This document shows, in pieces, positions 7,939 to 26,789 of a stretch of DNA of 64,000 nucleotides (within the stretch, counting starts at the first letter, position 1; each line of letters opens with the position of its first letter). The position numbers and the translations under genes are program-made. The DNA lies in NCBI GenBank assembly GCA_026014495.1, contig JAOZIF010000137.1, positions 1-64,000 on the forward strand. Direction: 5' to 3'. Source of the stretch: Candidatus Bathyarchaeum sp. (GTDB taxonomy: Archaea; Thermoproteota; Bathyarchaeia; Bathyarchaeales; Bathyarchaeaceae). Under the pieces are notes generated by a model. The model was not told the origin of the DNA and ran no database searches. It saw nothing but the letters and a program-made list of their open reading frames with translations.

Positions 7939-8230
7939 ATTTTAATCCTCCAACAGATTGTAATTAACTAAACAAACGGTAGTTTTTAATGTCAACATAG
8001 AAAAACGATGGCATAAAAACAGCTTAATCGTTCAATGCACAAATTGCAAAACAGCTAATTGTTTTAATTATTAATAAAACATTGAAGTTGTAAGTCCCAA
8101 CTTTCTGTCAAGTTTTGGTATATTAAGAAAAACTTTGATCAGATGGTTCGGTGCTGACAGATAAAATTTATCTCGCTTTGACTTGTTGACTGTATGAAGT
8201 ACACTACTTGATTTGTAAGAGTTCAGAAAA

Positions 8231-9280: not shown

Positions 9281-9374
9281 TTTTCCAACACCCCAAAAGG
9301 GTTAGTTTAACAATGAATGTGTCACAGTTTCTCAAAAAATTGTCACATAAGTTGTATTCATTCTAAAGAACAAC

Positions 9375-10058: not shown

Positions 10059-10158
10059 TATTGTTCACCGTATTTCTCAAAAAATCAACGCGGTATACTC
10101 GTTTCTTAGTTAACTTTGTTCTGATGGCAACAATGCTTCAAGGGTTTTGTTTTTAATT

Positions 10159-11085
10159 TCAATTATTTCGTAGTTGGCTGGAAATAAATCCAAACATCCA
10201 AGCAGTCATCTTGAAGCAATAGTGAATGGGCAACAAAAACACATTCTTTTTATTTACTAATCTATAGCCAGTCAAAGAATAAAGAAAACCAGTTATAAAA
10301 CCTGCAGGAGGAGACATTCGACTAACAGATAGCGCTTCTTTTGTCTCGGCTTGAAGTGTTTGACAACCTTGCCCGTACCAATAATACTTTTTCCACAAGT
10401 CACTGAACGATGACATTCCATTGTGCAACTCATAAAAAATGGCGTCATTTAATCTTATTTTCCAGCCAGCATACTTAATTTTGAAGACAACATTCACATC
10501 TTCGCCCGCGCCGGTAAAGCGCTCATCAAAGCCACCTACGTGGTTTAAGGCTACAACACGAAAAGTTGTGCCACCAGTACCAGGTAATTTTTCAGTCTTC
10601 CAAATGAAACTTCTTGGTTTTCCAAAGTTAGCATGATTAACAATATGGGGTACAAGTTCAAGATTTAAAACAAGATTCTTTGAAACAAGACCAAAAACAC
10701 CTGCAGTTATTGCAACATCAGGGTTTTGTTCTAAGAATTCGACTTGCTTACGTATGTAACTTGTAGTCAGAATTTCATCCGAGTCAACCCATGTTATGTA
10801 ATCGCCGTCTGCGTTATTAAGAATTAAATTTCTTGCTGAACCCAAACCCTGCCACTTAGTTTTGAAAACCTTGGTTTGAATGTCCATCTTTGTGACGTAA
10901 TTAGCCACAATTTGCGGTGTGTGATCTTCGCTACCATCGTCAACAAAAATTACTTGCATTTTTTCATGAGAAAAGTCTTGATTAATTATGCTATTAATTG
11001 CTTTTGGTAAAGTATTTTCACAGTTACGTAAGCACATACCTACTGTAACCACTGGCTTCATAGTGGATTCCACTTTTGATTTCAA
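10159..11085 (-). CDS. Glycosyltransferase family 2
   Basis: FVDDGSEDHT, GLGSARN, WVDSDE, GGFDERFTGAGED; overlaps the upstream acyltransferase by 4 nt. Confidence 0.92.
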   Translation of the reverse strand: MKSKVESTMKPVVTVGMCLRNCENTLPKAINSIINQDFSHEKMQVIFVDDGSEDHTPQIVANYVTKMDIQTKVFKTKWQGLGSARNLILNNADGDYITWVDSDEILTTSYIRKQVEFLEQNPDVAITAGVFGLVSKNLVLNLELVPHIVNHANFGKPRSFIWKTEKLPGTGGTTFRVVALNHVGGFDERFTGAGEDVNVVFKIKYAGWKIRLNDAIFYELHNGMSSFSDLWKKYYWYGQGCQTLQAETKEALSVSRMSPPAGFITGFLYSLTGYRLVNKKNVFLLPIHYCFKMTAWMFGFISSQLRNN

Positions 11086-11507
11086 CAGCTTGGTGGTTTA
11101 AAGAATTTAATTGGCTTTGCAGGAACACCAACTGCAAGACAGTTATCGGGTATATCCTTGTTTACCACTGCACCAGCACCAATAACTGCATTTTCACCTA
11201 TAGTAACGCCAGGAAGTATAGTGACATTTATTGAGATTCGTGCACCTTTCTTGATTACAACTGGACATATTCCACCCTCATCTGCTTTGTATCCTCTTAA
11301 CACATTTGAGTGTGAAAGGATGTAATCAAACCCAGCAATTATAACATCATCACCAATTGTAATGTCCGAAAAGTGGACATCAAGAAAAACATGACTACCA
11401 AAAACATATGGATTACCAATTTTTATGCCTGCTTTCCTATACATAGCTATTCTTAATTTTTCTGAAGGAGAATACATTCCCAAAAAGCGCAGTAACGATT
11501 TAAACAT
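11082..11507 (-). CDS. Hexapeptide-repeat (left-handed beta-helix) acyltransferase
   Basis: VTILPGVTIGENAVIGAGAVVNKDIPDNCLAVGVPAKPIK. Confidence 0.92.
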   Translation of the reverse strand: MFKSLLRFLGMYSPSEKLRIAMYRKAGIKIGNPYVFGSHVFLDVHFSDITIGDDVIIAGFDYILSHSNVLRGYKADEGGICPVVIKKGARISINVTILPGVTIGENAVIGAGAVVNKDIPDNCLAVGVPAKPIKFFKPPSC

Positions 11508-11590
11508 ACAAGTTCCTCACAGTTTATTATATGAATCTAAAAACAATATTTATTCTTACTTCCAAAAAGTCGACTAAAAAAGTTCATAAC

Positions 11591-12502
11591 TCAGTTTGAT
11601 TTTTTATGCCCATAACCAGTTAAGTGACCCTTCAAGAAACCTGCCATCCAAGCAACCCTTTTGAAAGTGTAATGGAAGGGCAATAGAAAAGAAAACTTCT
11701 TGTGAGTTATTTTAAAGCCACTCTTACAACGAATTAAACCAGCGACAAAACCAGCCATAGGTGTCATTTTCAAAAGCGATATTGAATGGGCGTCTTTATG
11801 AAAGACAAAGTGACCTCCGTAGCCATACCACATGTATTGTGTCCAAAGGGAAAGAAGTGAATTTCGTGTGAATTCGACAAAAACTTCATCTGTTGACTCC
11901 AGTTTCCAACCAGTTTTGACTAATCGGGATACTAGTTCGGTATCTTCTGCTGCACCCTTTATGTTAACATCGAAACCTCCACTGTTTCTTACAGCATCAA
12001 CTCTATGGATGGCGCCTTCGGTTCCAGGTAAATAGCCATATGTTGACGATTCTTTTTCTCCGCAACTAGAGTCGACGACATAAACCAGATTTTCCAAGTC
12101 AGCAACAACGCCGTGACCCAGACATAAACCATATTTTCCTGCTGCAACGGCTACACGGGGGTTTTTTTCCATGAATTCAACTTGTCCTCTGGTGTATGTG
12201 TTGGATAGAACCATGTCTCCGTCTACCCATATTATGTATTTACTTTGGGCTTTGTCAACAACAATCTGCCGTGCAGCGCCTAAACCAGTAATATTGCGGT
12301 ATATTCGGTAAGTGATGTCTATATCGGAAAGGTAGTCTTTCACGATTGATAATGTCTGGTCGTTACTGAAGCCTTCAACGACAATTAGTTCAATTAAATG
12401 ATGAGGAAAGTCTTGACTGATTATGCTTTGCATTGTCTTTGCAATGGTCTCGTCTACATTCTTTATGCATAGACCAAGTGTGACAATTGGTGAGTTTGTC
12501 AA
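11591..12502 (-). CDS. Glycosyltransferase family 2 (paralog of 10159-11085)
   Basis: VVEGFSNDQT, GLGAARQ, WVDGDM, GGFDVNIKGAAED. Confidence 0.92.
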   Translation of the reverse strand: MTNSPIVTLGLCIKNVDETIAKTMQSIISQDFPHHLIELIVVEGFSNDQTLSIVKDYLSDIDITYRIYRNITGLGAARQIVVDKAQSKYIIWVDGDMVLSNTYTRGQVEFMEKNPRVAVAAGKYGLCLGHGVVADLENLVYVVDSSCGEKESSTYGYLPGTEGAIHRVDAVRNSGGFDVNIKGAAEDTELVSRLVKTGWKLESTDEVFVEFTRNSLLSLWTQYMWYGYGGHFVFHKDAHSISLLKMTPMAGFVAGLIRCKSGFKITHKKFSFLLPFHYTFKRVAWMAGFLKGHLTGYGHKKSN

Positions 12503-12566
12503 AGTTTTCAGTCGTCTCCTACGAATAAAAAATCAGACGGTGAGTTATGTTAAGCGTCTCACTCAT

Positions 12567-13787
12567 TCAGATTAAACCCTTTTCTTTGAGCATGTCTTCA
12601 GTTATGAGTGACCGAGCCTCTTGACTGGTTTTCCACAGTTTAAATCCACTACTTGTGACAAATGTTGTTAAAGCAGCCAATAGAATACAGTTGTTTTGTA
12701 TTACTTCGATTAACATTGTTCTAGTTTTTCTAATCAGCAATGCTGGACAAAGCATCACCAAAAACGCCGCCAACAATACAGGATATTGCATAAACACAAA
12801 AACGGAAATAACACCTAGAACGACAAACAGAACAGGATTAAAAAGGTGCAAGAAAAGCTCGGGCACAGCTATTTTCTTAGGAAGCTTCAGTTTTCGGTTA
12901 ACCAGTAACTTAAGAGACTTGATCCATAGACGCTGTAATTGGTTTGCACGTCTAATCTTCAAAGTTATCTTGCTTTTCCAGTCTGTTGGAAAAATAGTGT
13001 AGAAGCCCACTTCAGGAATTAGTAGGCTTCTGCTGTTTCTTTGCACAACATCAAAGGCTGTGCCAGAATCGTCTGTTTCATGATTGAATTCCTGAAGGAA
13101 TTTGCGTTTATAGGCTGCGAATCCGCCTTGAAAAAAGATTGTTGAATGTACTTTTGATTCGCCAATTCGAATTGATTGGACAGTGTTATCAAAAAATTGT
13201 TCTCCTACGGTAACCCATGAGCTTTGAGAGTTAAACAATAGCTCTCTTGCAGTTATTGCACCCACAGTTGGGTCTGATAGGTATGGCAAAGCTTTTATCA
13301 ATATATCTGAGTGCAAAAAGCAATCTGCATCGGATACTACTATAACATCACCTGTTGCATGTTTTAGGGCAAAATTTAGAGCTCTTGTTTTTCCTTCCCG
13401 TTCAGTTCTGCTTAATACTTTTATGTCCAAACAATCATTATTGCTTACAAATTCGTTTATTTCATCTATCGTTTTATCGGTTGAAGCGTCATTTACGAGT
13501 ATGGTCTCAAATTTCTTGCTAGGGTAATTAACTTTGCACAGGTTCTCCAACTTGAATCGAATGGTTTTTTCTTCATTACACACAGGCACTATGATACTTA
13601 TAGACGGATCATAGCTTTCAGTCAGCTTCAGATTCCAAGGTTTTGATGATTGACGTCTCATATACAGGTAATATATGCCTGAAAAACCTGAGAAAACGAA
13701 GAGTAGCAAAGCCCAAGCTACAAGCATCAAAATCATAAAAAAAATCACTCTTTTAGAACTCTTCTGAACAAAGAATAATCCATTCAA
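12567..13787 (-). CDS. Membrane-bound GT2 (CesA/PgaC/IcaA-like)
   Basis: N-terminal TM, SIIVPVCNEE, VNDASTD, GKTRALN, SDAD, ETDDSG, RRANQLQRLW, C-terminal TMs. Confidence 0.85.
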   Translation of the reverse strand: MNGLFFVQKSSKRVIFFMILMLVAWALLLFVFSGFSGIYYLYMRRQSSKPWNLKLTESYDPSISIIVPVCNEEKTIRFKLENLCKVNYPSKKFETILVNDASTDKTIDEINEFVSNNDCLDIKVLSRTEREGKTRALNFALKHATGDVIVVSDADCFLHSDILIKALPYLSDPTVGAITARELLFNSQSSWVTVGEQFFDNTVQSIRIGESKVHSTIFFQGGFAAYKRKFLQEFNHETDDSGTAFDVVQRNSRSLLIPEVGFYTIFPTDWKSKITLKIRRANQLQRLWIKSLKLLVNRKLKLPKKIAVPELFLHLFNPVLFVVLGVISVFVFMQYPVLLAAFLVMLCPALLIRKTRTMLIEVIQNNCILLAALTTFVTSSGFKLWKTSQEARSLITEDMLKEKGLI

Positions 13788-13796
13788 AAAATGGAC

Positions 13797-14708
13797 TCAG
13801 ATATTTTTGTTCAAGCGCTCATCGAACAGCTTGAATGTTTCACGTGCGTGGCTCTCTTTTGACACTCCTGCGACTACGCCTTTCAAATTGCTAAGATTTG
13901 CTAAGTAGGCTACAGCTTCAGGTGGTTTGAAGTAACCTGCTGCTAGCACACTTATAGCTAATACTATTGGGCTAGAAATATTAGACAAGGTGTTCTCAAA
14001 TTCGGTCCTTGATGGGTTCATTTGGAAACCTGCCTTGTTGAAAGGTGTTGCAATCAAAGTTTGGTCCAGATTAATATTCCATTCATTGAATTTTCTTACG
14101 AAAAGTGGAAGATTGCGAGTGTTAAATCCTGGAGTTATGCCTTTTTTAGAAAGAAATGAGGTGAAAGATTTGAATAACCAATCAAAGTTTAAAGCTAAAC
14201 CCATGTCTGTCAATACTTCATGGAGTAAAACTGATGACAGGTTTGCTTTTTTGCCAGCTGCCGCTTTTATTTTGTTAATTTCGTATGAAACATACGTTTT
14301 CAAGAGACTTTCAGGTTTCATCCTAAAAGCTCCGTTTAAGCCTCCAAAAATTGCCTGAACATCACCTGACAGTGCCATCTGTTTCACAACGTTCTTGGCT
14401 AAGCCAGGAGTTCCAGTCTGAGTTGCAATTCTAACGTATTCAAAGACGTAAGGGACTATTGCATGAAGCTCTAGTTTATCAATTTTCTCTCGTTCTCGTA
14501 AGGTTTTTAGAATTGTTAAGGTTAGGTCGCTCACAGAAAACATGAAACCTGTTGCACCGTTCTCAACAGCAGTTAGGATCAAGTCTGCCTTATCTGCTGC
14601 GGAAACATCGCCGTCGGCTCTACTTCGAGCCTGTTCTTGAGAGAGATGGCTGATTCCATGAAATGGATTGTCTCCTACTAGGAGCATGGTTCGCACTTTT
14701 TTATTCAT
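13797..14708 (-). CDS. Conserved hypothetical protein, probable TIM-barrel
   Basis: LLVGDNPFHGISH start, PFNKAGFQMNP; start overlaps the stop of the upstream oxidoreductase at 14708. Confidence 0.7.
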   Translation of the reverse strand: MNKKVRTMLLVGDNPFHGISHLSQEQARSRADGDVSAADKADLILTAVENGATGFMFSVSDLTLTILKTLREREKIDKLELHAIVPYVFEYVRIATQTGTPGLAKNVVKQMALSGDVQAIFGGLNGAFRMKPESLLKTYVSYEINKIKAAAGKKANLSSVLLHEVLTDMGLALNFDWLFKSFTSFLSKKGITPGFNTRNLPLFVRKFNEWNINLDQTLIATPFNKAGFQMNPSRTEFENTLSNISSPIVLAISVLAAGYFKPPEAVAYLANLSNLKGVVAGVSKESHARETFKLFDERLNKNI

Positions 14709-15718
14709 TATTGTTCACTTCTTGTTTTTACTTGTTCAATTATGTAGTCAACTTTCGAGGATGTCTCAAAGTTTGGTTCACAATGCTTGTTTTCTAACAA
14801 CGAATTAACGAAATGTTGGTTTTCTCTGAAGTATTCTGCATCACCTATCGAAAAATACACATTGTCATTAAGGTCATGTCTGTACCACTTCTGTTGGGTA
14901 CCATCACTTGAGGTCAAGAGTAATCTGTCGTCGTTTACATCTATTGTTCCATCAGAGCATTTGATGAACAAACCAAATTCTGGCATTCGATAATTTGGCA
15001 TTTGTTGGGAAACATTGATCTGTCCGGATAACCCTGCAGAATTAGTAACTGTGAAAGAAACTGATAGTTCAGAACCAGTTTCATTTCTTGTGCTGGACAA
15101 AACATTTTGAACATCGAAATCGCCAAGTATCCAGAGTGATAAGTCTATTATGTGACAACCGATGTCTCTGAGCGCGCCACCACGTGATGCAGAAGACATT
15201 GACTCCTTTGTTAGTCCAAGAAAATCTGAAGAATATGCATAAGCCTTGAAAGATTTTATTTTGCCCAGATTTCCTTGTTGTAATAATTCTTTAGCTTTCC
15301 CAAAAACAACAGAAAACCGTTTCATGTAACCAACCATGGTGATGCTGTCTGAGTTCTTGGCAAGTTCACACATTTCTTTAGCTTGCTCATAGTTGGTGGC
15401 AAGTGCCTTTTCCACGAACAAGTGACGAGCTATTTCTTTTTCATACAAAGTCTTTACTATTGATGAATGTGAAGAGATAGGAGTCGTCACGTAAGCTACG
15501 TCAAGGTCTAACCCTGCGAGTTTATCAATGTCATTAACAACAAGAACTCCTGTTGGTGAAAAGATTTTTTTATAAAGCCTATTCAGCAATTTGCTTTTGT
15601 CACATAATGCTACTAGTTCGACGTTAGAGAAAACATTCAAAAGGCTTGAATGCAACAGGCCCATTTTTCCTAACCCGATAACAGCAACTCTAAGTTTTTG
15701 TTTTTTCAAAGTATACAC
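14708..15718 (-). CDS. Gfo/Idh/MocA family oxidoreductase
   Basis: VAVIGLGKMG Rossmann motif, HLFVEKALA, VGYMKRF, GGALRDIGCHIID. Confidence 0.93.
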   Translation of the reverse strand: MYTLKKQKLRVAVIGLGKMGLLHSSLLNVFSNVELVALCDKSKLLNRLYKKIFSPTGVLVVNDIDKLAGLDLDVAYVTTPISSHSSIVKTLYEKEIARHLFVEKALATNYEQAKEMCELAKNSDSITMVGYMKRFSVVFGKAKELLQQGNLGKIKSFKAYAYSSDFLGLTKESMSSASRGGALRDIGCHIIDLSLWILGDFDVQNVLSSTRNETGSELSVSFTVTNSAGLSGQINVSQQMPNYRMPEFGLFIKCSDGTIDVNDDRLLLTSSDGTQQKWYRHDLNDNVYFSIGDAEYFRENQHFVNSLLENKHCEPNFETSSKVDYIIEQVKTRSEQ

Positions 15719-15837
15719 AACCTAATTTAAGTCTGTTTTTGACTAACCATTTGTTTTGAAATATCAAATCAAAACTGTTAAGCGAATAGCATCAGCTGTA
15801 AACATTAATAAATAAAGCAAAATAGAGGAGAACGTAA

Positions 15838-16584
15838 TTAAATGTTCATTGCGCCTCTGAAAAGAGTTTTCAAGATGCTAAATCCATCTCTAAAAGTGTT
15901 AAGATTAGAAATACCATAACGTCTTGCGCGCTCAATACTTGGAATTTCATGAACAGTTAGTCCGAGCAATTTCGATTTTATACAAATCTCTGTTTCAATT
16001 TCGAAATTCTCACTCTCTAGAACAGGATTAAGACAGCGTAATGCGTCTTTTTTGAACGCCATATAGCCATAGCATAAATCGGAATAGTTAGTAAGAAACA
16101 TGAAGTTTGAAATCCCTGTTAGAATCCTGTTGCCAACACGCCTTAATGGAGTTAAATCTTCAGAGCCACCGCAAGGCAAAAACCTCGAACCCTTTACAAC
16201 ATCTGCGCCCAGCTCTACAGCTTCAGCGAATCGAAATATCTCTTTTGGGTCCATTGACCCGTCAGCATCCAACATTACAGTAATGTCACTGGTACGCATA
16301 CTTTCTTGGAAAGCTTCACGCAATGCACCACCTTTACCTGATCCGTTCTGAAGAATGACTTTGGCTCCGAGCGTCTTAGCAATTTCAACAGTCTTGTCTT
16401 TTGAATGCCCATCTACAACTAAGATGTCGGCACAGCCTATTTGTTTTAAACTATTGATTATATCGTATATGTTTTTTTCTTCATTTAGCGTAGGAATAAT
16501 GACTGTTACTCGATTATTCCCAAACTGTGAATCATTCATCCGCATACTCACCATCATTCTTCTGAACAAAACAGTTATTTTCAT
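15838..16584 (-). CDS. GT2, polyprenol-phosphate glycosyltransferase-like
   Basis: VIIPTLNEE, VVDGHSKDKT, GKGGALR, MLDADGSMDP, VKGSRF, FEIETE, RRYGISNL. Confidence 0.9.
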   Translation of the reverse strand: MKITVLFRRMMVSMRMNDSQFGNNRVTVIIPTLNEEKNIYDIINSLKQIGCADILVVDGHSKDKTVEIAKTLGAKVILQNGSGKGGALREAFQESMRTSDITVMLDADGSMDPKEIFRFAEAVELGADVVKGSRFLPCGGSEDLTPLRRVGNRILTGISNFMFLTNYSDLCYGYMAFKKDALRCLNPVLESENFEIETEICIKSKLLGLTVHEIPSIERARRYGISNLNTFRDGFSILKTLFRGAMNI

Positions 16585-16715: not shown

Positions 16716-17402
16716 TTAGCTTTTGTCAATGTAAAATCTTTCAGTATTCTTAAAGTATCTATCAACATTTTCCACAACAGGCTTTTTGGAATTGTTCAAA
16801 ACCACTGACAACTCACTAGTAAACTGCTTAACAGCTTTCTTTTTAAGAGAAAGATACTCCGAAATATCGACGTCAGCAATGCAATCTTTGTACACGTCAA
16901 TCAATCGTTCAATGCGGGGTCCAAAATTCAAAAATCTATGCATCACAGAATATTGATACCTAATAGACGTTAACTTCAGATTTTGAAGGCATCTCCTAAT
17001 AATTCGATTCGCAGCGCGATGGTCAGGATGAGAATCACGCATAAACGGAAAATAGACCTCAACTGGAGAGTGTTTTTTGAGTATTTCAGTTATTTTTTGT
17101 TCAGCAACAGTTTCATGTTCTTTAAGCATTCTATCTTCAAAATCGAGAAACACTAAGTTTTCAACAGGTACACCTAATACAGTTGTAGCATCAATTACTT
17201 CTTTCTTTCTGATTTTGACTATCGCATCGGGAGTTATATCCGAGTTTAGATCTAAACAGTTAGAAAATGCATGCCTCCCATCGGTTAATAAAACGATGTA
17301 GACTTGATAGTTTTCACTAAGTTTTTTAGCGATTGTTCCACCACAACCCAAAGTCTCGTCATCTGGATGCGGAGAAAACACTACTATTGGTTTATCCATC
17401 AA
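16716..17402 (-). CDS. PIG-L/LmbE family N-acetylhexosamine deacetylase
   Basis: FSPHPDDETLGCGGTI, IRKKEVIDATTVLGV, DSHPDHRA zinc motifs. Confidence 0.93.
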   Translation of the reverse strand: MMDKPIVVFSPHPDDETLGCGGTIAKKLSENYQVYIVLLTDGRHAFSNCLDLNSDITPDAIVKIRKKEVIDATTVLGVPVENLVFLDFEDRMLKEHETVAEQKITEILKKHSPVEVYFPFMRDSHPDHRAANRIIRRCLQNLKLTSIRYQYSVMHRFLNFGPRIERLIDVYKDCIADVDISEYLSLKKKAVKQFTSELSVVLNNSKKPVVENVDRYFKNTERFYIDKS

Positions 17403-17466: not shown

Positions 17467-18588
17467 TTAATTTGATAAAATGTCTTTTTTCAAAGAAAAA
17501 CTAAGTTTCTTTGCCAAATTATCAACAGTGCTACTACAGGTAATCCAGTTGTAAAACTTACTATGCAAACTATTGCGCACTAACCTAACTTCAAAATTCT
17601 TTCTGTAGGTGTGCGTCCATCTTTTTTTGTACGCTTCAGCACCTCTCATAAGATCATATTCCTTAATTCCATTTTCTATACAGCGCTTCAAAATGAGCAT
17701 TATTGTGAGACTCCCAGCAGAATAAACAGAATACTCAGGAAGAAAACCCGAGAGATAATAATACGTCTTTTCAGCATAATCAAAGGAATAGTGACCTGCA
17801 ATGGGTTCATCGTTAGCCATTAAGAAATAAAGACTCAACCAGTTTTTATCATTAAAACGTTCAGCGACATCTACATGAAAATCACGAAAAGCTCCATCAT
17901 GAAAAGCCCCTGACAATCCTTCCGAGTTCCATTTTTTTTGATGTATCTCCATGAAAACATTTATAGCTTCATTAACTGAGAGTCCAACCTCGTCAAACTT
18001 TTTAAAATCTATTTTATGATTTTGCTTAATTCGTCGTAGTTTTTTGTTCAGGTCCTGTCGCATGTTGCAGCTCAACCCTTTCATAAAACTTTCAAACGAA
18101 TCAGGCAAAGTAATATACGGACACACATTGTAAACTCTTTCTTGAACATCTAAATTGAACGGAACATTGGAAAAGAGGTTGCCAGAATAATTTTTGCTTT
18201 CAGGAATTTCCTTAAGCTCAATCCAATCCCAGTCTGCAACGACATTCACCAAATAATCCATTATAATATTTAGACACTTTTCTTTTTGTTCAGCAATAAT
18301 AAAATTGTTATAATCAGAATGGCGGGTTCCCACAAATTCTACTTTTTTAACTGAACCCAAACCAGGCATCTTATACTTCGATAACATTAGTGGAGCAATA
18401 GCACAAACCTTGTCTTCATCTTCAACAGTTAAAAGCAAAAGGCGCCTGTTAGACCCGAAATGCTTCCACCAAGTAGACAACCAGGCCCAAGTCAAGAAAA
18501 CGTTGTTACCAAAAAGGTTGCTTTCAAGAACAGTGTCCCATGTTTCCTTAACACCATCAAAGTTATCCACTTCGTTTAGTTTCAACAT
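17467..18588 (-). CDS. GNAT acyltransferase, CelD/BcsL (Acetyltransf_6, Fem-like) family
   Basis: VFLTWAWLSTWWKHF, GTRHSDYNNFI, YLSGFLPEYSVYSAG, YDLMRGAEAYKKRW. Confidence 0.9.
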   Translation of the reverse strand: MLKLNEVDNFDGVKETWDTVLESNLFGNNVFLTWAWLSTWWKHFGSNRRLLLLTVEDEDKVCAIAPLMLSKYKMPGLGSVKKVEFVGTRHSDYNNFIIAEQKEKCLNIIMDYLVNVVADWDWIELKEIPESKNYSGNLFSNVPFNLDVQERVYNVCPYITLPDSFESFMKGLSCNMRQDLNKKLRRIKQNHKIDFKKFDEVGLSVNEAINVFMEIHQKKWNSEGLSGAFHDGAFRDFHVDVAERFNDKNWLSLYFLMANDEPIAGHYSFDYAEKTYYYLSGFLPEYSVYSAGSLTIMLILKRCIENGIKEYDLMRGAEAYKKRWTHTYRKNFEVRLVRNSLHSKFYNWITCSSTVDNLAKKLSFSLKKDILSN

Positions 18589-18625: not shown

Positions 18626-19507
18626 TCATTTTTCTCTGAAAATACGCAGATAAGCAGAAGCAGCCATTGCACGGAGATCGTCTTTCAAAACTTTCTTAGG
18701 AAAAGCCTGTTTGAAGTAAGAAAAATCTCCAACAGGAGAAAAAGTTGAGTCCCAAACACCATCACGGGAAGCCACAGTAATTTGTTTCACTGAACGAGTT
18801 GAAATACCCATAAGTTTTGAGGCAGCAATATCTGCTACAAGAGGGTTGTCACAAGACATCACCAAGTTCAATTGTTTAGCGTATTTTCCATGTGCAACTA
18901 GACCATCGACTACAACCAAATCAGTTTTGATTTGCTTGTTTATGAAAACTATTGCTTCGTCCAATACTTTGTGATACTTGAACTTTTGTGGATAAGCGTT
19001 ACATCCATAAAAATTCTTTAGTGCACACGTAATTTTCACACCGTGCATATACTTTAGTTTAGGAACGTTTACCACAAGATCGGCTTCATAAAATAGTTCA
19101 GGTATATGGAACGTGAATAGTGAACGACCGATTCTAGCGTCGATGATACGGCATTTCTTTTCGGTTAAATTGACTAAGTTTACGTCTTTTTCTTTAGCCA
19201 TCTTGTCATATTCAAGCATCTTGAAGGCATGTTTGCATTTCATGGCGGAGGCGTCTGATTCTACGACGAAAATTTCAGAAGTTCGGGCAAAATTTTCTCT
19301 AAAAACGTCAATCAGAGCAGCAACGAATAATGGATCAGTGACTTCTCCAGTTGAAGGGTGATAATAGTAACACATATTTGGTTTTATTACGATTTTATCA
19401 GCGTTCCTGTTAAAGTTGAATCCAATTAAATCTAGAGATTCTTTGATTGCAGCTTTCAATGTATCTGGATTACAGTTCTCAGTACGAACAAAACTTACAG
19501 TGCTCAA
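18626..19507 (-). CDS. DUF362 domain protein
   Basis: IVIKPNM, VVESD, VNVPKLK, TCALKNFYG, VVVDG, DNPLVADIAASKLMG. Confidence 0.85.
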   Translation of the reverse strand: MSTVSFVRTENCNPDTLKAAIKESLDLIGFNFNRNADKIVIKPNMCYYYHPSTGEVTDPLFVAALIDVFRENFARTSEIFVVESDASAMKCKHAFKMLEYDKMAKEKDVNLVNLTEKKCRIIDARIGRSLFTFHIPELFYEADLVVNVPKLKYMHGVKITCALKNFYGCNAYPQKFKYHKVLDEAIVFINKQIKTDLVVVDGLVAHGKYAKQLNLVMSCDNPLVADIAASKLMGISTRSVKQITVASRDGVWDSTFSPVGDFSYFKQAFPKKVLKDDLRAMAASAYLRIFREK

Positions 19508-19522: not shown

Positions 19523-20524
19523 TTAGGTGTGCAGTCCTGAATTCTTCATCGCGTTTTTGTATGCAGAATCAATTACTTTCAAGCCATACAAGCCAGCATC
19601 TCCTGAAGGCTGAGGCTGCTCATCTTTCTGTAAACTGCTAACAAAATGTTCTAGTTCCAAGTAGTTAGAATCCTTTTTATTTAACCCAAATTTGCGTGCA
19701 ATACCGTTCCAGAAGATTTTTGAAGTGCTCTGAGGAGAAATTTGAACCAGCATATTTTGGGCAGTCCCACAAACTTGAACCGATTGCAAAAAGTCTGTTG
19801 AGAACCATCCTACTTTAGCAGTTGCTACAGGACCGTCCTTAAACTTTAGCACACAAGTCGCAGCATCCTCCAACTCGAGGTTAAACATGTGTTCTAAAAA
19901 ACATTCTACATGAACGACTTCACCGAAATACCAGCTTAACAAGTCAATCAGATGTGAACCAAGGTCTAGTAAAACACCGCCTCCAGATAGTTCTTTGTCA
20001 AGCCACCATGACGGAACTTTAACAGGACCAACATGGTCACTTCTTGGAGAGAATGGACCACCACTGACATTGGTGACCTCCGCCAATTTAATGCTGCCAA
20101 ACAAACCATCTTTTATTCCATCATATAGGTTTGAAAGAATGGGGTTAAATCTCATATCATATCCCATCATCAGTTTAACACCGTTCTTTCTGACAGCTGA
20201 CAGAATTTCCTTCCCTTCATCAACAGTTCTAGCTAGCGGTTTCTCCAGAAGAATGGCTTTTCCAGCTTCTGCCGCTTTCTCTGCACCATCACGATGAAGA
20301 AAGTTGGGCAAACTAACGACAACTGCGTCAACAGCGTCATTTTTCAAAAGGTCATCATAGTTAGCGTAAACGTCTTTGATACCCATTCCTTTTGCATACC
20401 TTCGGGCTTTTTGAGATAAATCTGCCACGGCCACGGTTTTTGCGCCCTCTAGCCGTAGAGAATTACGAAGACTTACTTTGCCTTGTTCTCCAAGCCCAAT
20501 TAATCCTAAATTTACCTGTTTCAT
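19523..20524 (-). CDS. Gfo/Idh/MocA family oxidoreductase
   Basis: GLIGLGEQG, LPNFLH, ILLEKPLA, GYDMRFNP, SGGGVLLDLGSHLID. Confidence 0.93.
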   Translation of the reverse strand: MKQVNLGLIGLGEQGKVSLRNSLRLEGAKTVAVADLSQKARRYAKGMGIKDVYANYDDLLKNDAVDAVVVSLPNFLHRDGAEKAAEAGKAILLEKPLARTVDEGKEILSAVRKNGVKLMMGYDMRFNPILSNLYDGIKDGLFGSIKLAEVTNVSGGPFSPRSDHVGPVKVPSWWLDKELSGGGVLLDLGSHLIDLLSWYFGEVVHVECFLEHMFNLELEDAATCVLKFKDGPVATAKVGWFSTDFLQSVQVCGTAQNMLVQISPQSTSKIFWNGIARKFGLNKKDSNYLELEHFVSSLQKDEQPQPSGDAGLYGLKVIDSAYKNAMKNSGLHT

Positions 20525-20549: not shown

Positions 20550-21590
20550 TTACAGAAATACTGCAAGGAATTTTTCGCATAATGATAACACAAATTTGTT
20601 AAATTTTGGCATATAGACTTTGTTATAAAGATACACTTTGTTAAGTTGTCCTTTCCATTCTCTTTTCCATCTCCATAAACCCCAGCCTTCAGAGTTTTCA
20701 TTGGGCAGCGGTTCACGGACGTGCCCCATATGATACCAAGAGAATCCATTGTTGCAAGCCCATTTCATTGTTTCCCAGTGTAGCAGATCGTTGGGTCTTA
20801 CGTGCCAACTTTCTTCCCGAGAACCTGTACCTAATGCATAAGCAGTCTTGCCATGAAGTACGACAAAAACTCCAGCAACAGGTTGACCCTCAAAAACAGT
20901 TAAGAATATTTTTAGATTGTTACGTTTTCCAAAGATTTTGCTGAGAGATTGAAAATATATAAAAGGGTATGTTTTGAAGCCAACTCTTTTAGCTGAAATC
21001 GCGTGTAACTCAAAAAAGGAAGCGAGGGCATCATAGTTGTTACATTGAACTACTTTGGCACCTTGTTTTTGTGCTTTTTTGATGTTTCTTCTTTTGTTAT
21101 GTGTAATTGTTTTCCAAAGTTCGGTTTCAGATTTCCGAAGGTCTACTTTGTAAACGTTGAATACTGTGTTAACTGTATAACCCATATTTTCTAAAGTCTG
21201 ATTTGTTTCTGGCGCATAGATGTTAGCTTCAGAGACCCTGTTCTGGATTGCATGTTTTTCTAATAGCCCCATTAACTTTTCCAGAACTTCTTTCCTGTTG
21301 TCTGTCCCTACAACTGGTCCGTAACCATAAACGCCGCCAACTTCTGTGCGGTCACCAAACCCGAACCGCTTGTTGTATCGAGCTTGAATTAAACCTGCAA
21401 GATTATCATCGTTTATTGCTAAAAACCTTAGAATTTTCGCGTGGGGATTAGATTCCTTTATGGCTTCGCCGTATTCAAATGACTGTTGAAGATTACCTAA
21501 AGTGTAGTCCTGCAAGAACTTTTCCCACATGCCAGATGTAGGGTGGTCGATAATTGTATATTTGTCCATAATACTAGTCTCTTGCAACAT
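20550..21590 (-). CDS. FemABX-family (lipid II:glycine glycyltransferase-like) aminoacyl transferase
   Basis: GNLQQSFEYG, GYGPV, DLRKSETELWKTITHNKRRNIKKAQKQG, PNDLLHWETMKWACNNGFSWYHMG, GLWRWKREWKG (Fem C-terminal FK-x-x-F/W-G equivalent). Confidence 0.85.
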   Translation of the reverse strand: MLQETSIMDKYTIIDHPTSGMWEKFLQDYTLGNLQQSFEYGEAIKESNPHAKILRFLAINDDNLAGLIQARYNKRFGFGDRTEVGGVYGYGPVVGTDNRKEVLEKLMGLLEKHAIQNRVSEANIYAPETNQTLENMGYTVNTVFNVYKVDLRKSETELWKTITHNKRRNIKKAQKQGAKVVQCNNYDALASFFELHAISAKRVGFKTYPFIYFQSLSKIFGKRNNLKIFLTVFEGQPVAGVFVVLHGKTAYALGTGSREESWHVRPNDLLHWETMKWACNNGFSWYHMGHVREPLPNENSEGWGLWRWKREWKGQLNKVYLYNKVYMPKFNKFVLSLCEKFLAVFL

Positions 21591-21609: not shown

Positions 21610-22848
21610 TCAAAAACTTACACCTGGACGACTCCAAGGATAGACTTTTTTCTTTATGATTTTTGCCAATGCGACTGGAAACAAAGCCGAATTGAACAAA
21701 AATGGAAGTGGATCATCTAATTCAAACAAATCATAAAAGAGTCCGGGTTCATAAAACTTGAGCCAGCTAGCTAATACTTTCAGGTTGTTCTGGTTTTTAA
21801 AGATGTGATTTGTAAAGCCGTTTTTAAGCATGCTAAAGAGGTATAGTAGGTCTTGATCAAAGTATCTGCCTTTAACGCCCACCTTATAGTTGAAGACTCC
21901 CTTAACGTCACCGTCCATAGCAATTTGGTAAAGTAAATACGGAAAGTCCACTCCAGCTTTGACTGCAACAGATAGTGATCCCCAGAAACGAGGGTTAATC
22001 TCCAGTAGTTTTGGAATATTATCTCGGGAGTCAACTCTAAACTCAAGTTCTGCAATTCCGTGCCAATCTAACGCCTTAAGCAAAGTTTCACTGTATTTTC
22101 TTAGATTATTAGTAAGCGGAACAGTTTCGCGATAACAGCTGTTGCCACCTTCAGGAGGCCATGCTCGAGTTACTTTGATACAACAAAATGCTCGAGGTTT
22201 ACCGTTGTTGTATACAGTCGCCACTGAAAAGTTCGTTCCCGGAACATATTCTTGAATTAAAGGATACGGAAAATATTGATGAATACTGTTATAAGTTGCG
22301 ATAAGCTCTGCAGGTGAATTGACAAGACCCCCTCTTCTGTGATAAGCACGACCATTTCCCCAAACCATAGACCATCGCGGTTTGACGATACACGGATAGG
22401 TTATTTCTTGCGAGATTTTGTTCAGTTTAGCGGTTGAATTATCTACAAAAAATGTTTGTGGAATGGGTACGCTGTGTTCAGTGGCTAATTTCATTGTTGA
22501 TCGTTTGTCAAAGCACTTGAGAATTGAATCATGACGGGCAATAGGAAGGTTCACATAAGGACTTATTCGATCTCTGTTTTTGGAGATTGGTAAAAGAGAC
22601 CATTCAAAGATGGGAAAAAGAAGATCAAACTTTGTTTTTTTAACGATTTTTTCTACTGCACAAGCATATTCTTTTTCAAAACTCGTAGATGGAACCAGCA
22701 CTTGTCTTTTGCAATATTTTGAAAACCGAGAAACAGATAAAGAATAACTCGACATAATAGCTGTGTCTACTTTTCGTTTTCCTAGAGATCTTAAGATGGG
22801 AAGGACAACCGGATTATGTCCCTCGGCAATTAAAACACCATTACCCAA
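21610..22848 (-). CDS. ATP-grasp carboxylate-amine ligase
   Basis: ILRSLGKR, CFDKRSTMKLA, YPCIVKPR, PLIQEYVPG, LDWHGIAELEFRVD, LLEINPRFWGSL, AGVDFP. Confidence 0.92.
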   Translation of the reverse strand: MGNGVLIAEGHNPVVLPILRSLGKRKVDTAIMSSYSLSVSRFSKYCKRQVLVPSTSFEKEYACAVEKIVKKTKFDLLFPIFEWSLLPISKNRDRISPYVNLPIARHDSILKCFDKRSTMKLATEHSVPIPQTFFVDNSTAKLNKISQEITYPCIVKPRWSMVWGNGRAYHRRGGLVNSPAELIATYNSIHQYFPYPLIQEYVPGTNFSVATVYNNGKPRAFCCIKVTRAWPPEGGNSCYRETVPLTNNLRKYSETLLKALDWHGIAELEFRVDSRDNIPKLLEINPRFWGSLSVAVKAGVDFPYLLYQIAMDGDVKGVFNYKVGVKGRYFDQDLLYLFSMLKNGFTNHIFKNQNNLKVLASWLKFYEPGLFYDLFELDDPLPFLFNSALFPVALAKIIKKKVYPWSRPGVSF

Positions 22849-22892: not shown

Positions 22893-24263
22893 TCAAATTG
22901 TTTTATCTTTATAAAGGACATCTTCAGGAGTTTCTCGTTCTCGAATCAGTTTGACATTACCGTTTGAATCTAAATTAACTGCACCAGGACGGGGATGAAG
23001 AAATTGTGTGGATCGCGAAATTGTGTATGCACCGCAATCAGAAATTGAAAGTATGTCGCCTTCAGAAACTTTTGGAAGAAAAGTTTTGAGATTAATGAAA
23101 TCTTCAACATATAGTAGAGGACCAACTACATTAATTTCCTCTTCTGGTTGTTTGGATGCTTTGTTTGCAACACTAATTTTTCGCTGCTCTATTGCACCAA
23201 AACGAGGAAGCAGATTTGTTCCAGCATCAACCATTACCCATTTGTAGCCGCCAGCATTTTTGACATGATCAATACGTGTAAGTAAGATTCCAGACGCTGA
23301 AGTGATAAATCTCCCTGGTTCAACAATAATTGTTGGTTCAGGTAAATCTTCTAGACCTTGCTTGATTTCGTTTACAATAGACTTGGCAACAGATTCTATG
23401 TTTGTAATGTTACGGTTTTCAGCTAATTTTGATTTGAGACCGATTTTTCGTCTCAGAAAGTCTTTGATTAAATCATTGTTTCCAATAAAACGAGCCCCAC
23501 CGGGATTGAATCCACCGCCTATGTTGAGGTATTTAAGTTCAACTCCAAAGTTTCTGTAGAGTTCGCGCATCATAGGTAGAAGTACTTTTGTTGATACCCT
23601 ATAGGGATGAGCCATTATTGCTTCAATTTTCAAGTTTTTGAGTTTTGTTGCCTGTTGAACGGCTGAATATGCTTCTTTTATAGAAAAACCGAATCTACTT
23701 CCAAGATTGCAATAAGCAGCGGTAACAAGCTTGTTTAAAGAGAGATACTTGAATATACCGGGTTCTTTGAAGGGATTTATTCTGAAACCGATAGCCTGTT
23801 TAACGCCCAACTCTCCTGCTACAGCATTCACTCTGTTGAGTTCAGTAAGAGATTCGACATTTATGAGTCGGATTTGCTTGCTGATAGCTGTCTTTAGTGT
23901 TTCTTTGGATTTCATGGGACCATCAAAGATTATGTTCTCGCCACCAAAGCCAGCCCGTAAAGCCACATGTATATCAAGTTCGGAAGCAACTTCGGCGTAT
24001 GCTCCGTTCTCTTTAAGGGTTTGGCAAATAGCCAAATTGTTATTGGTTTTGATTGAATAACAAACCATTACTTTGGGATATAAAGCAGAAAATGCACTGG
24101 AGATACGATTAAAGTTCTCTATAAGCTTAACTTCGTCAAAGACAAAAAGTGGTGTATCATATTTTTCGCATAGTTCAACCAAGTTTACTCCGTGTAGAGT
24201 CAAATGACCCTTTTTGTCGATTCCAAAGCTATTTTCGTGAATCAAGTTTTTATTAATCTCCAA
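22893..24263 (-). CDS. PLP-dependent group IV decarboxylase, diaminopimelate decarboxylase (LysA)-like with a divergent active site
   Basis: YDTPLFVFDE, CYSIKTN (PLP Lys), EVASELD, INVES, SRFG, LNIGGG, EPGR, DCGAY, HPRPGAV; GPLLYVED in place of GPLCES. Confidence 0.85.
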   Translation of the reverse strand: MEINKNLIHENSFGIDKKGHLTLHGVNLVELCEKYDTPLFVFDEVKLIENFNRISSAFSALYPKVMVCYSIKTNNNLAICQTLKENGAYAEVASELDIHVALRAGFGGENIIFDGPMKSKETLKTAISKQIRLINVESLTELNRVNAVAGELGVKQAIGFRINPFKEPGIFKYLSLNKLVTAAYCNLGSRFGFSIKEAYSAVQQATKLKNLKIEAIMAHPYRVSTKVLLPMMRELYRNFGVELKYLNIGGGFNPGGARFIGNNDLIKDFLRRKIGLKSKLAENRNITNIESVAKSIVNEIKQGLEDLPEPTIIVEPGRFITSASGILLTRIDHVKNAGGYKWVMVDAGTNLLPRFGAIEQRKISVANKASKQPEEEINVVGPLLYVEDFINLKTFLPKVSEGDILSISDCGAYTISRSTQFLHPRPGAVNLDSNGNVKLIRERETPEDVLYKDKTI

Positions 24264-24305: not shown

Positions 24306-25442
24306 TTACACAAGTATTTCAGGCATGGCTTTCAAAAATCGATCGTTCATATTGGGAAGGCCTATGGTAACGCGTAGACAGTGACCGATAACGGGTAATT
24401 CGCCAAGATTCTTTATTATTATGCCTTTATCTAAAAGTTCACGGTAAACTTCCTCGGTGTTTTTGTTAGTTTTAAATGTAACAAAGTTTGCTTTTGAATC
24501 CAAAACTTTTATTCCGTTAATAACACGCAATTTACTAAGAAGTCTCTCACGCTCAGTGTTAACTAAATTTGTCCATCTTTGCACAACTTCAATGTTATCC
24601 AACAGCCTTTGGACGTACCTAGCAGTAAGTGTGCTAACAGTATAAGGAAGTGTCTCTGAAAGGACTGAAGCAAAATCCTTGTGCGCAGTAGCGTACCCAA
24701 ATCGTAGTCCCGCCAAACCAAACGCTTTGGAAAATGTCCGCACTACAACTATATTCTTTTTATTAATAGCCAATGGACAAACAGAATACGTTCCAAACTC
24801 CACGTAAGCTTCATCCACTAAGACAACCGCAGAAGATGCATTAGCCAAAGCTTCAATTGCAGCCCAATCAAACTGATTTCCAGTAGGATTATTCGGTGAA
24901 CAAACAAAGATTAACTTGGTCTTATTCGTCACCTTCTTAAGAACATCATCAACATCAATAGACAAATCGTCTCTAAGGGGCACTGAAACCAGCTTAGCTC
25001 CACTTAACTCCACCCTCTTTTTATACATGAAGAAACTGGGCGAAATTGAGATGGCTTCATCACCTTTTTCCAAGAAAAGCTGGATAATAAAATCAATTAG
25101 TTGTTCGCTACCACTGCACGCCACAACACATTCAGAAGGCACACCTACATATTTTCCTAAGGCAGTTTTAAGCTCAACCATTGCGTTTGAATCATAAAAT
25201 CTCAAATCAACATTTTTAATAACCTCTAGAAAAACGCCTTTAAGAAAACTAGAGTCAACAAAGAAGTTTTCGTTAGCATCTAACTTTAGAATCTGAGAAG
25301 AACAAATGCCAAGCTTTGAGGCAAGCTGGGTAACACCAGTAGAAGAATTAACATAACCGAGAAGTGATCCATCAAAGGATTGCAAAAGTTCAAGCTTTTT
25401 TTCTAACCAATTCAAATTCGGTTTCACTTCCATAATTTTCAA
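24306..25442 (-). CDS. Class I/II PLP aminotransferase, histidinol-phosphate aminotransferase (HisC/CobD)-like
   Basis: KLDANEN, SGSEQLI, CSPNNPTG, VDEAY, RTFSKAFGLAGLRFGY, SKANF, CLRVTIG. Confidence 0.88.
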   Translation of the reverse strand: MKIMEVKPNLNWLEKKLELLQSFDGSLLGYVNSSTGVTQLASKLGICSSQILKLDANENFFVDSSFLKGVFLEVIKNVDLRFYDSNAMVELKTALGKYVGVPSECVVACSGSEQLIDFIIQLFLEKGDEAISISPSFFMYKKRVELSGAKLVSVPLRDDLSIDVDDVLKKVTNKTKLIFVCSPNNPTGNQFDWAAIEALANASSAVVLVDEAYVEFGTYSVCPLAINKKNIVVVRTFSKAFGLAGLRFGYATAHKDFASVLSETLPYTVSTLTARYVQRLLDNIEVVQRWTNLVNTERERLLSKLRVINGIKVLDSKANFVTFKTNKNTEEVYRELLDKGIIIKNLGELPVIGHCLRVTIGLPNMNDRFLKAMPEILV

Positions 25443-25466: not shown

Positions 25467-25540
25467 TGGAGCCAGGGGTTGGAGTTTCACCAACGTGAGC
25501 GGCTCTGCAAACCGCCGCCTGATTACTCAGCCACCCTGGC
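25467..25540 (-). tRNA. tRNA-Cys(GCA), non-canonical D- and T-loops, CCA encoded
   Basis: Minus strand folds by hand as GCCAGGG TG GCTG AGTAATC AGGC G GCGGT TTGCAGA GCCGC TCAC GTTGG TGAAACT CCAAC CCCTGGC T CCA (74 nt). Seven-bp acceptor stem, GCA anticodon, G37, U73. Confidence 0.9.
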
Positions 25541-25582
25541 TTCGTTTGCTTCCATAGTTGGTCACAGGAGTAAAATCGCTAT

Positions 25583-26194
25583 TCAGATAACAGCAGATCC
25601 AATGGTCATATTGAGCTTTAGGTCTACGTATCTTTCGTGATATTGAAAGTTACCAAGTTCGTTATTGTAAATCCAAAGTTCGAAGAATACATTTCCGATA
25701 AATCCGTTTATTTGCGAGTTCCATGTTGTAGACCCAGTAATATCTAACAGGACACCATTTAACGTCATACTGTTAAAGGTGACTTGTGAAAGATTTTCAT
25801 TATAGCTGTAGTCAAACGAAAAAACAATGGGTAACTCCCATGTTTCGTTGTTAACAAGAGAAAATGTGATATCATACAAAGAGGGCAAACTGCTTGAGCT
25901 CTCAGTTAAACTGTCAGCAGCCGATTGAGTTATATTACGGAATTTGACTTTAATCATGTAATCGCTATCAGTCCCTAATAAATTTCCAACACCTAAAAAC
26001 ACGTTATAGTCCTCGTTAAGTGTAATATTAAACGGATAGGTTTCACCATTATGTTCTGGACCCAGAAGCCAAAGTTCAGTGAAGAACTCTGTTTGGGGAA
26101 GAACTAAAAACCGTTGTAACACAGGCGAAAGAACAAATAGTGACAAAACGAATATAACAACTAAAATAACTGTTGTGTAATTTTTATAACGCAT
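25583..26194 (-). CDS. DUF1616 domain membrane-anchored protein
   Basis: N-terminal TM then FFTELWLLGPEHNGETYP, VFLGVGNLLG, YMIKVKFRN, FELWIY; RBS GGAGGT upstream. Confidence 0.8.
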   Translation of the reverse strand: MRYKNYTTVILVVIFVLSLFVLSPVLQRFLVLPQTEFFTELWLLGPEHNGETYPFNITLNEDYNVFLGVGNLLGTDSDYMIKVKFRNITQSAADSLTESSSSLPSLYDITFSLVNNETWELPIVFSFDYSYNENLSQVTFNSMTLNGVLLDITGSTTWNSQINGFIGNVFFELWIYNNELGNFQYHERYVDLKLNMTIGSAVI

Positions 26195-26402: not shown

Positions 26403-26789
26403 TTATGCTGTTTCTTTTGAGTGTTTGTGGTTAGAGTTATTTGACAAATCTATGTTAGGACACATCGCATCTAACATCAGCCTTTGGTCTTCAACATGGT
26501 TCAACTGATTGTACACACTCTCACGCGATTTGTCATATTCACTAAATGTAGCCAAAAACATTTGTCCTTTTTTCGTGAGCATATAACGATTTCTCTTTCC
26601 ACAAACGATCAACTCCGCTTCTGTCAAATCATTTAGGTACTGAACCAAGAGCTTATAGCTCAAATACGCTTGATACATTATTTGAGTTCTCTTAGCACCC
26701 TTGTTAGCACTAATTACAGAAAGAATGTTTGCTAATATTACTAGTCGACTTCTGTGTTTACCCATTTTATTCACACAAAAAACAAACAA
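26403..26789 (-). CDS. Winged-helix transcription regulator (archaeal HTH_45-like)
   Basis: MGKHRSRLVILANIL...GAKRTQIMYQAYLSYKLLVQYL...YMLTKKG; probable start at MGKH (26765). Confidence 0.85.
   Translation of the reverse strand: MFVFCVNKMGKHRSRLVILANILSVISANKGAKRTQIMYQAYLSYKLLVQYLNDLTEAELIVCGKRNRYMLTKKGQMFLATFSEYDKSRESVYNQLNHVEDQRLMLDAMCPNIDLSNNSNHKHSKETA

Follow-up and report, generated by a model that had tools for sequence, protein, structure and literature searches.

A variant tRNA-Cys heading a candidate Fem-type glycan module in Bathyarchaeia

Does a tRNA gene that lies directly before a run of glycan genes, and that departs from the other tRNAs of its genome at the elbow, serve translation or some other process? 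This question is raised by a variant tRNA-Cys(GCA) gene in a 64,000-nucleotide (nt) stretch of Candidatus Bathyarchaeum sp. (assembly GCA_026014495.1, contig JAOZIF010000137.1, positions 1 to 64,000), hereafter the window, whose genome we call G000. A preliminary description of the window had read this gene as an "elbow-less" tRNA that is charged, kept out of translation and used by a Fem-family enzyme encoded nearby. Here we describe a lineage of such tRNAs that retains a cloverleaf and the Cys identity elements and recurs ahead of one gene module in several archaeal families, and we lean towards regarding it as a dedicated Cys-tRNA donor for Fem-type glycan decoration, private to the module it heads.

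The variant tRNA-Cys among the tRNAs of its genome

25467-25540, minus strand: variant tRNA-Cys(GCA), 74 nt, called by ARAGORN and Rfam RF00005

Both programs placed a tRNA-Cys(GCA) where the preliminary description had it, with Rfam RF00005 scoring 43.6 bits (cut-off 29) over model positions 1-71 of 71, a full-length cloverleaf, and with the minus strand fitting the described gene order. The acceptor stem has 7 base pairs (GCCAGGG/CCCUGGC) and the anticodon stem 5, closing a loop, UUGCAGA, that carries G37; the variable region is UCAC (4 nt) and the T arm reads GUUGG-UGAAACU-CCAAC. U8, A14 and G15 are present, U54 and A58 are retained in the T-loop, and the discriminator U73 is followed by a gene-encoded CCA. 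The earlier claim that all four stems pair held for the acceptor, anticodon and T stems but not for the D stem, which contains a U12-G23 wobble and a G13.A22 mismatch and so is not fully Watson-Crick; this imperfect D stem is common to the canonical tRNA-Cys genes of the group. The near-universal elbow residues G18 G19 and U55 C56 are missing from the variant: its D-loop is AGUAAUC, with AA in place of G18G19, and positions 55-56 are GA as opposed to the usual UC. On the kept residues (U8/A14, G15, T54/A58, GCA, G37, U73 and CCA), the D-loop AA and the T-loop TGA, our read-out and the preliminary description agree, as they do on the spacing of the gene, which lies 42 nt after the stop of a DUF1616 gene (25583) and 24 nt before the TTG start (25442) of a HisC-like gene, or 33 nt before its first ATG.

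We then ran ARAGORN on the whole assembly (2.19 Mb, 196 contigs) and inspected each D-loop and T arm. GG and U55C56 were kept in 31 of the 32 tRNAs, the single exception being the variant tRNA-Cys, and the elbow deviation is therefore not a matter of chance. The intron-bearing tRNA-Arg(CCG) of the window (approximately 44666-44772) has the normal GG and TTC, as had been reported. The preliminary description had also raised the existence of a second, canonical tRNA-Cys, and we found one at contig C194:45664-45739, with the GCA anticodon, D-loop AAUGGUUU and T-loop UUCAAUU. A tRNA-Cys of this type is present in 20 of the 24 genomes sampled from the genus; in that sample G005, a single-contig genome, 99% identical, carries the C194-type tRNA-Cys and no variant tRNA. 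A canonical tRNA-Cys also accompanies the variant in 9 of 9 searchable variant-bearing genomes, so that the pairing recurs in nine independent metagenome-assembled genomes. Mis-binning of C174 and C194, the contigs of the two tRNA-Cys genes, was considered and is unsupported, the GC content and tetranucleotide profile of both fitting the genome.

The genome encodes a bona fide CysRS (C113:79563-81002, 524.7 bits), and no SepRS or SepCysS in it reaches the family cut-off, the weak matches fitting other enzymes. Cysteine is the expected charge because CysRS is present and SepRS and SepCysS are absent, and for the latter reason carriage of phosphoserine by the SepRS route was rejected. A truncated CysRS-like paralog also lies at G000:C3:1425-2684 (locus L097; 419 amino acids (aa), 309 bits against a cut-off of 340), covering model positions 1-397 of 466 and hence missing the C-terminal portion. 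G005, G018 and G112 each have a copy of it, those of G005 and G112 with in-frame stops, and G026 and G055 have none. We rejected this paralog as a dedicated enzyme for the variant tRNA, since it is found in G005, where the variant is absent, and is missing from G026 and G055, where the variant is present.

A conserved lineage ahead of a Fem-containing module

We searched 151 genomes of the order by BLAST and with a covariance model (R1, built from five variants), scanned species genomes with protein patterns and metagenomes with DNA patterns, and ran a further pattern scan on 401 genomes of the class. Together these searches yielded 12 loci with an intact variant tRNA-Cys, spread over six GTDB families of one order; other orders of the class, as far as they are represented among the 401 genomes, gave none. 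One further pattern-scan locus (L104) was discarded as a chance match within coding-like sequence that holds no tRNA. Loops of the normal kind were seen in approximately 60 further tRNA-Cys sequences of the order, all distinct, and the altered loops are accordingly not general to the tRNA-Cys of this group, in line with what the preliminary description had supposed.

The conservation of the variants was assessed on 13 sequences, comprising the 12 intact members and a degenerate second copy at L042. Standard pairs are formed by 98.8% of stem cells, and changes on both sides were seen in 9 of 20 pairs. This greatly exceeds the shuffled and slid controls, but it should be read with caution, since the alignment had been fitted to the model. 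GCA, G37, U73, G15, the A before C48, U54 and A58 are invariant (13/13), and CCA is gene-encoded in 11 of the 13. The major determinants of tRNA-Cys are the anticodon and U73, and the minor ones G15 and A47 (PMC9976931); this set (G34 C35 A36, U73, G15 and A47) is complete in the window gene and in all 13 lineage members. The comparison indicates that the variants are under selection as folded tRNAs with Cys identity elements, because the cloverleaf has been kept through compensatory changes.

A maximum-likelihood tree joins the variants in a single group (support 88/94), separate from the canonical tRNA-Cys of the genomes that carry them; this grouping is partly a product of the very elbow features of interest. 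The G018 and G055 variants branch first and keep a TTC T-loop, and the likely order of events is that G18 changed to A first and U55C56 to GA or GC afterwards. Position 18 is A in all 13 variants and the T-loop begins UGA or UGC in 11 of them. The observed pattern of elbow changes is not explained by decay.

Closer inspection of the elbow suggests that "elbow-less" was an overstatement: GG and U55C56 are indeed altered, but the contacts themselves need not be missing. In the D-loop, an AU dinucleotide accompanies all nine T-loops with A56, and AG takes its place in the three intact members whose position 56 is C. Agreement between positions 19 and 56 (U-A or G-C) was 8/11 in the model-fitted alignment and 12/12 for the intact members after a 1-nt register shift, statistics that are weak given the short, A/U-rich D-loops and a U-A group that is probably one event. 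The window copy itself has A19.A56, or U19-A56 after the same shift. Position 19 may therefore pair with position 56, and the two may co-vary, as the agreement hints; we rate a remodelled corner no less likely than a missing one. A further change lies in the T stem, with U51-A63 in 10 of the 13 variants where nearly all canonical copies have G51-C63 (one has G-U), while G49-C65 and U50-A64 are fixed in the variants.

The genes that follow the variant tRNA in the window, and those that flank them, are these:

24306-25442, minus strand: HisC-like class I/II pyridoxal phosphate (PLP) aminotransferase, the module's first gene (PF00155 1e-53; TIGR01141 298.8 bits)
22893-24263, minus strand: Orn/DAP/Arg-type PLP decarboxylase, LysA-like, under the lysA cut-off
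21610-22848, minus strand: ATP-grasp ligase
20550-21590, minus strand: Fem-family transferase with tandem GNAT domains (PF02388 80.1 bits, cut-off 24; also PF13480)
19523-20524, minus strand: Gfo/Idh/MocA sugar oxidoreductase, nearest to UDP-GlcNAc 3-dehydrogenase and far under that family's cut-off
18626-19507, minus strand: DUF362 protein
17467-18588, minus strand: second, predicted Fem-fold protein (Acetyltransf_6; PF13480 108.9 bits)
16716-17402, minus strand: PIG-L/LmbE-type de-N-acetylase, nearest families BshB1/BshB2, score far below their cut-offs
5806-16584, minus strand: remaining co-directional glycan cluster, with five GT2 genes, a Gfo-like oxidoreductase, a 303-aa protein, a hexapeptide acyltransferase, a methyltransferase and a DUF2206 membrane protein
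25583-26194, minus strand: DUF1616 protein, conserved, upstream of the variant tRNA
26403-26789, minus strand: winged-helix HTH_45 protein, conserved, upstream

The eight genes downstream of the tRNA share its strand, with gaps of 15-64 nt. At eight loci (G000, G018, G026, G045, G055, L042, L044 and L102) the intact tRNA lies 12-30 nt upstream of an aminotransferase ortholog on the same strand, and the module order is aminotransferase, decarboxylase, Fem, Fem-like and PIG-L. The gene upstream of the tRNA varies by locus (DUF1616, the 303-aa gene or DUF362), and the variant tRNA therefore moves with the aminotransferase/decarboxylase/Fem module and not with its flank. Among these eight loci Fem orthologs follow wherever the contig continues, and Fem-type genes are in the same cluster at all seven loci with enough downstream sequence except L103, a deletion derivative. 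G045 and G092 are cut by contig ends, the G092 contig stopping just past the variant tRNA. G112 has no PLP genes and carries two Acetyltransf_6/Fem-like genes approximately 10 kb downstream in the same co-directional cluster. Across the order, strong Fem orthologs occur in 5 of 151 genomes (G000, G013, G018, G026 and G055), four with the variant tRNA and G013 with a remnant of it; we give these co-occurrences as counts without a P value, as the genomes are related.

The genome has four HisC-like paralogs, among them this aminotransferase, and the decarboxylase is its sole LysA-like gene; on that account these two enzymes look specialised rather than housekeeping. The ATP-grasp gene is present in the G000, G026, L041 and L042 modules and missing from those of G018, G013, G055 and L044. 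The L042 module (1-6700) is rearranged, running from the tRNA through the aminotransferase, a decarboxylase fragment, an oxidoreductase, the 303-aa gene and the degenerate second tRNA-Cys to a full decarboxylase; this second copy (5095-5166) has the T-loop UGCAAAU and a damaged acceptor stem. A TATA-like TTTAC or TTTAAC motif lies 10-38 nt upstream of most variant tRNA genes (window 25541-25582, L038, L039, L042, L092, L102 and L103) and may be the TATA element of the variant tRNA's own promoter.

To characterise the two GNAT proteins we combined sequence profiles with AlphaFold models. The 20550-21590 protein gave sequence-profile matches in the PDB to FmhB (6snr, 2.7e-15) and FemX (3e-9). 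Its model, with a mean predicted local distance difference test score (pLDDT) of 70, matched 6snr in Foldseek with E 3.6e-18 and a template modelling (TM) score of 0.73, and FemX_Wv with TM 0.69-0.71; the best folds were FmhB, FemX_Wv, Sba18/Sbb17 and FemA, then the MprF synthase domains. The 17467-18588 protein reached only 15.8 bits for PF02388, below the cut-off of 24 and so short of the FemABX family level, and had no PDB sequence match. Its model (pLDDT 74) has FemX_Wv (Weissella), FmhB, FemA and Sba18/Sbb17 as best folds, and the protein is Fem-like at the level of the predicted fold only. Both GNAT proteins model best onto aminoacyl-tRNA-dependent transferases.

Several side observations concern the other tRNA-Cys genes of the order. 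A second tRNA-Cys(GCA) isodecoder lineage is found at L123-L133, L139 and L140 (families f11, f5, f10 and f1 of the order); its members mostly have the acceptor sequence GCCGGGA, and all have the anticodon stem AGCGG or GGCGG together with a normal GG/TTC elbow. Copies of the 3' part of the canonical tRNA-Cys, 40-59 nt long, lie 2-5 kb from the full gene at G018:C5:127551-127595, G019:C77:23950-23994 and G006:C12:69756-69795, and G016:C30, a separate contig, has two more. Such 3'-part copies are the pattern left by elements integrated into tRNA-Cys.

Proposed role and competing explanations

How might such a tRNA be used? In the reading towards which we lean, that of a dedicated Cys-tRNA donor, CysRS would probably charge the variant tRNA with cysteine, the PIG-L enzyme or the PLP and ATP-grasp enzymes would uncover or introduce a free amine on a sugar, or on a sugar-linked side group, of a surface-glycan precursor, and the Fem-type enzymes would move Cys from Cys-tRNA onto this amine. 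The PIG-L deacetylase, nearest to BshB, could supply the acceptor amine. A sugar amine is a credible acceptor because Orf11 of the BD-12 pathway, a FemABX-like enzyme, aminoacylates an amino sugar from Gly-tRNA (PMC12945691). The replacement of G18 by A, of U55C56 by GA or GC, and of the 51-63 G-C pair by U-A would mark the tRNA for the transferase, and the elbow and T-stem changes would make aEF1A, the ribosome or modification enzymes use it less, so that the glycan pool of Cys-tRNA would be separated from the translational pool. As far as sequence comparison reaches, this interpretation is supported by every comparative test available.

Several observations weigh against it. The link between tRNA and module is not obligatory: G013 has an intact full module preceded by only the 5' half of the tRNA (a remnant also lacking GG), and L041 has the module with no tRNA within the 1.6 kb available upstream. 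At L103 the intact tRNA outlasts a deleted module, of which a 33-codon aminotransferase remnant is left, fused to later glycan genes, and at L101, on a short contig, no aminotransferase adjoins the variant tRNA. Fem-like homologs elsewhere (L045, L047-L053 and L055) have no tRNA nearby. The preliminary description had expected the variant to co-occur with Fem genes, and this expectation holds in that the tRNA travels with Fem-type genes, with departures at G013, L041 and L103. The normal T-loop of the early-branching G018 and G055 variants is a further difficulty, and the rule that weak T-stem pairs (49-65, 50-64, 51-63) lower elongation-factor affinity is one of bacterial EF-Tu and not of aEF1A. 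Genomes of the order often have two or three tRNA-Cys genes, the extras with normal elbows, so that a second copy is in itself nothing unusual. Finally, the sole tRNA-Cys found in the 98%-complete genome G124 (G124:C4:126909-126983, L081; same family) has the D-loop AGCCGUU, with C18, a retained G19 and a normal T-loop. G124 appears to translate with this C18 tRNA-Cys, and loss of G18 by itself would then be compatible with translation.

These last points feed the best-surviving alternative, which we consider unlikely, namely that the variant is a spare isodecoder of the ordinary kind, a duplicate that travelled with a mobile glycan cassette and serves translation; its elbow changes would then be drift that is tolerated, or would be compensated, and nothing would tie it specifically to the Fem enzymes. 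Extra tRNA-Cys genes being common in the order, the C18 of the sole G124 tRNA-Cys, the possible 19/56 co-variation, which would preserve the L-shape, and the full retention of identity elements and cloverleaf are all what a spare isodecoder would show. However, the elbow-altered copies sit in these glycan clusters in 13 of 13 cases, whereas the approximately 60 distinct normal-elbow tRNA-Cys come from elsewhere, and 25 of them (L062-L069, L071-L086), viewed with at most 1.5 kb of flank per side, have no cluster genes. The 12-30 nt junction between tRNA and aminotransferase, moreover, persists across six families despite the changing upstream neighbour, and no other tRNA of the genome has lost U55 or C56.

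We regard as rather improbable a role for the gene as a cis-acting RNA, whether as a promoter, as an RNase P/RNase Z site that sets the 5' end of the module mRNA, or as a means of coupling module expression to cysteine charging. The fixed and very short spacing to the aminotransferase start would suit such a role, as would the TATA-like motif upstream of most copies and the fact that in L103 and G112, which lack the aminotransferase, glycan genes still follow the tRNA. A processing signal, on the other hand, needs no conserved GCA, G37, U73, G15 or encoded CCA, which are kept in 11 to 13 of the 13 variants, the module persists without an intact tRNA in G013 and L041, and we found no precedent in the literature searched.

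Two more speculative readings assign the PLP enzymes a substrate on the tRNA. It is doubtful that these enzymes remodel the tRNA-bound cysteinyl group before Fem transfer to the glycan and that the locus is one case of a widespread, undescribed pairing of private tRNAs with Fem-like enzymes in polysaccharide decoration; if true, such tRNA-bound remodelling would give archaea a new way of making a non-protein amino acid, one that depends on tRNA. That the variant tRNA is a tailoring scaffold, on which the adjacent PLP enzymes convert Cys-tRNA to a non-protein amino acid ahead of Fem-type transfer in the manner of SepCysS or SelA, strikes us as very unlikely. Such a scaffold would account for the tRNA being kept off the ribosome; the tightest conserved junction is that between tRNA and aminotransferase and not between tRNA and Fem, and the decarboxylase is a diverged member of the LysA type, a family that acts on the distal carboxyl. 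This reading is pure inference, however, drawn from analogy with SepCysS and SelA and not from homology to them, and G112 has the variant tRNA and Fem-like genes with neither PLP enzyme.

Least probable is a decaying pseudo-tRNA or integration-site relic at the edge of a variable genomic island, since, for all that glycan cluster content varies among relatives, that G013 has a truncated and L042 a degenerate copy, and that canonical tRNA-Cys of the genus carry att-like 3'-half repeats, the variant cloverleaf is kept with compensatory changes across six families, no partial copies of the variant tRNA occur anywhere in the genome, and the gene lies inside the cluster and not at its edge.

Parallels with known systems and the wider cluster

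The donor reading has a bacterial counterpart. In S. aureus and S. epidermidis the non-proteogenic (NP) tRNA-Gly (NP1-NP3) have TGC or TGT for TTC in the T-loop, U19 and A51-U63 (PMC7826273). The weak A/U pairs of their T stem lower the affinity for EF-Tu, and FmhB reads the D and T arms (PMC7826273); such tRNAs have been detected only in S. aureus and S. epidermidis, according to the same source (PMC7826273). Like the staphylococcal set of NP tRNA-Gly, FmhB, FemA and FemB, the archaeal lineage has an extra isoacceptor beside a normal one and co-occurs with Fem-fold transferases. In both, U55 is replaced (TGC/TGT there, TGA/TGC here), the G19 of the D-loop is lost, and an A/U pair stands at 51-63 where translational copies have G-C. 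The archaeal lineage thus appears, from these alignments, to show the same three kinds of change, and the new points are cysteine, archaea and the position of the gene in the operon. Unlike the staphylococcal case, this one concerns an archaeon, cysteine instead of glycine, and a tRNA gene that forms part of the biosynthetic operon and immediately precedes the first gene there; a surface glycan and not peptidoglycan is the likely acceptor, and the archaeal donor role is a predicted one. We found no description of an archaeal Fem-linked tRNA in the literature searched, which does not prove novelty.

The staphylococcal glycine tRNAs are the sole established case of tRNAs withheld from translation for a Fem-type transferase. 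If the donor reading is true, the Bathyarchaeia would provide a second, independent case, archaeal, using cysteine, with the tRNA gene built into the operon and a glycan as product, and splitting of the aminoacyl-tRNA pool would be a general solution. Such a case would further suggest that the Bathyarchaeia, abundant sediment archaea that are uncultured, have cysteine-bearing, thiol-containing surface glycans. The variant lineage is, besides, a natural experiment that could tell which nucleotides of the elbow and T stem govern the use of a tRNA by the archaeal translation machinery.

Among the best fold matches of both GNAT proteins are Sba18 and Sbb17 of streptothricin-type pathways, Fem-fold enzymes that place an amino acid from a charged tRNA onto the amine of a sugar intermediate. 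Unlike the locus described here, the streptothricin-type and BD-12 pathways are bacterial antibiotic routes that use housekeeping tRNA-Gly, with no private tRNA gene described. An operonic tRNA-Cys has been reported in Bathyarchaeota BA2, where the gene stands with SepCysSn-SepCysS-SepRS (PMC5424206). The two arrangements are alike in placing a tRNA-Cys gene with enzymes that act on it (as proposed here) and belong to the same archaeal class. The BA2 system makes Cys-tRNA for translation, whereas the present genome has CysRS with no SepRS or SepCysS, and the neighbours of the variant tRNA are glycan enzymes.

The cluster as a whole, with its many GT2 genes and DUF2206 membrane protein, looks like a surface-glycan locus. 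Its combination of a PIG-L deacetylase (nearest BshB1/BshB2), glycosyltransferases and a cysteine-specific component also recalls the assembly of mycothiol and bacillithiol, in which a glycosyltransferase and the PIG-L deacetylase MshB or BshB are followed by cysteine addition by MshC or BshC. MshC and BshC are not known to use tRNA. The resemblance is limited further in that the PIG-L score is far below the BshB cut-offs and the cluster resembles a polymer or surface-glycan locus.

The NCBIfam neighbours of two module enzymes include families from bacterial exopolysaccharide loci of the XrtA/PEP-CTERM type. For the Fem protein the best is the XrtA/PEP-CTERM FemAB family TIGR03019 (66 bits against a cut-off of 260), and the neighbours of the decarboxylase include the XrtA/PEP-CTERM (exosortase A) decarboxylase TIGR03099 (142 bits against 478). 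With both scores far under their cut-offs, this hints that the same pairing of decarboxylase and Fem enzyme also occurs in those loci. A last observation concerns the 303-aa protein (window 13797-14708, minus strand), which belongs to no Pfam or NCBIfam family and falls in Atlas only into groups of "hypothetical" clusters, from Bacteria and Archaea; it always adjoins the Gfo-like oxidoreductase in these clusters and has a confident predicted fold, with a predicted TM score (pTM) of 0.84.

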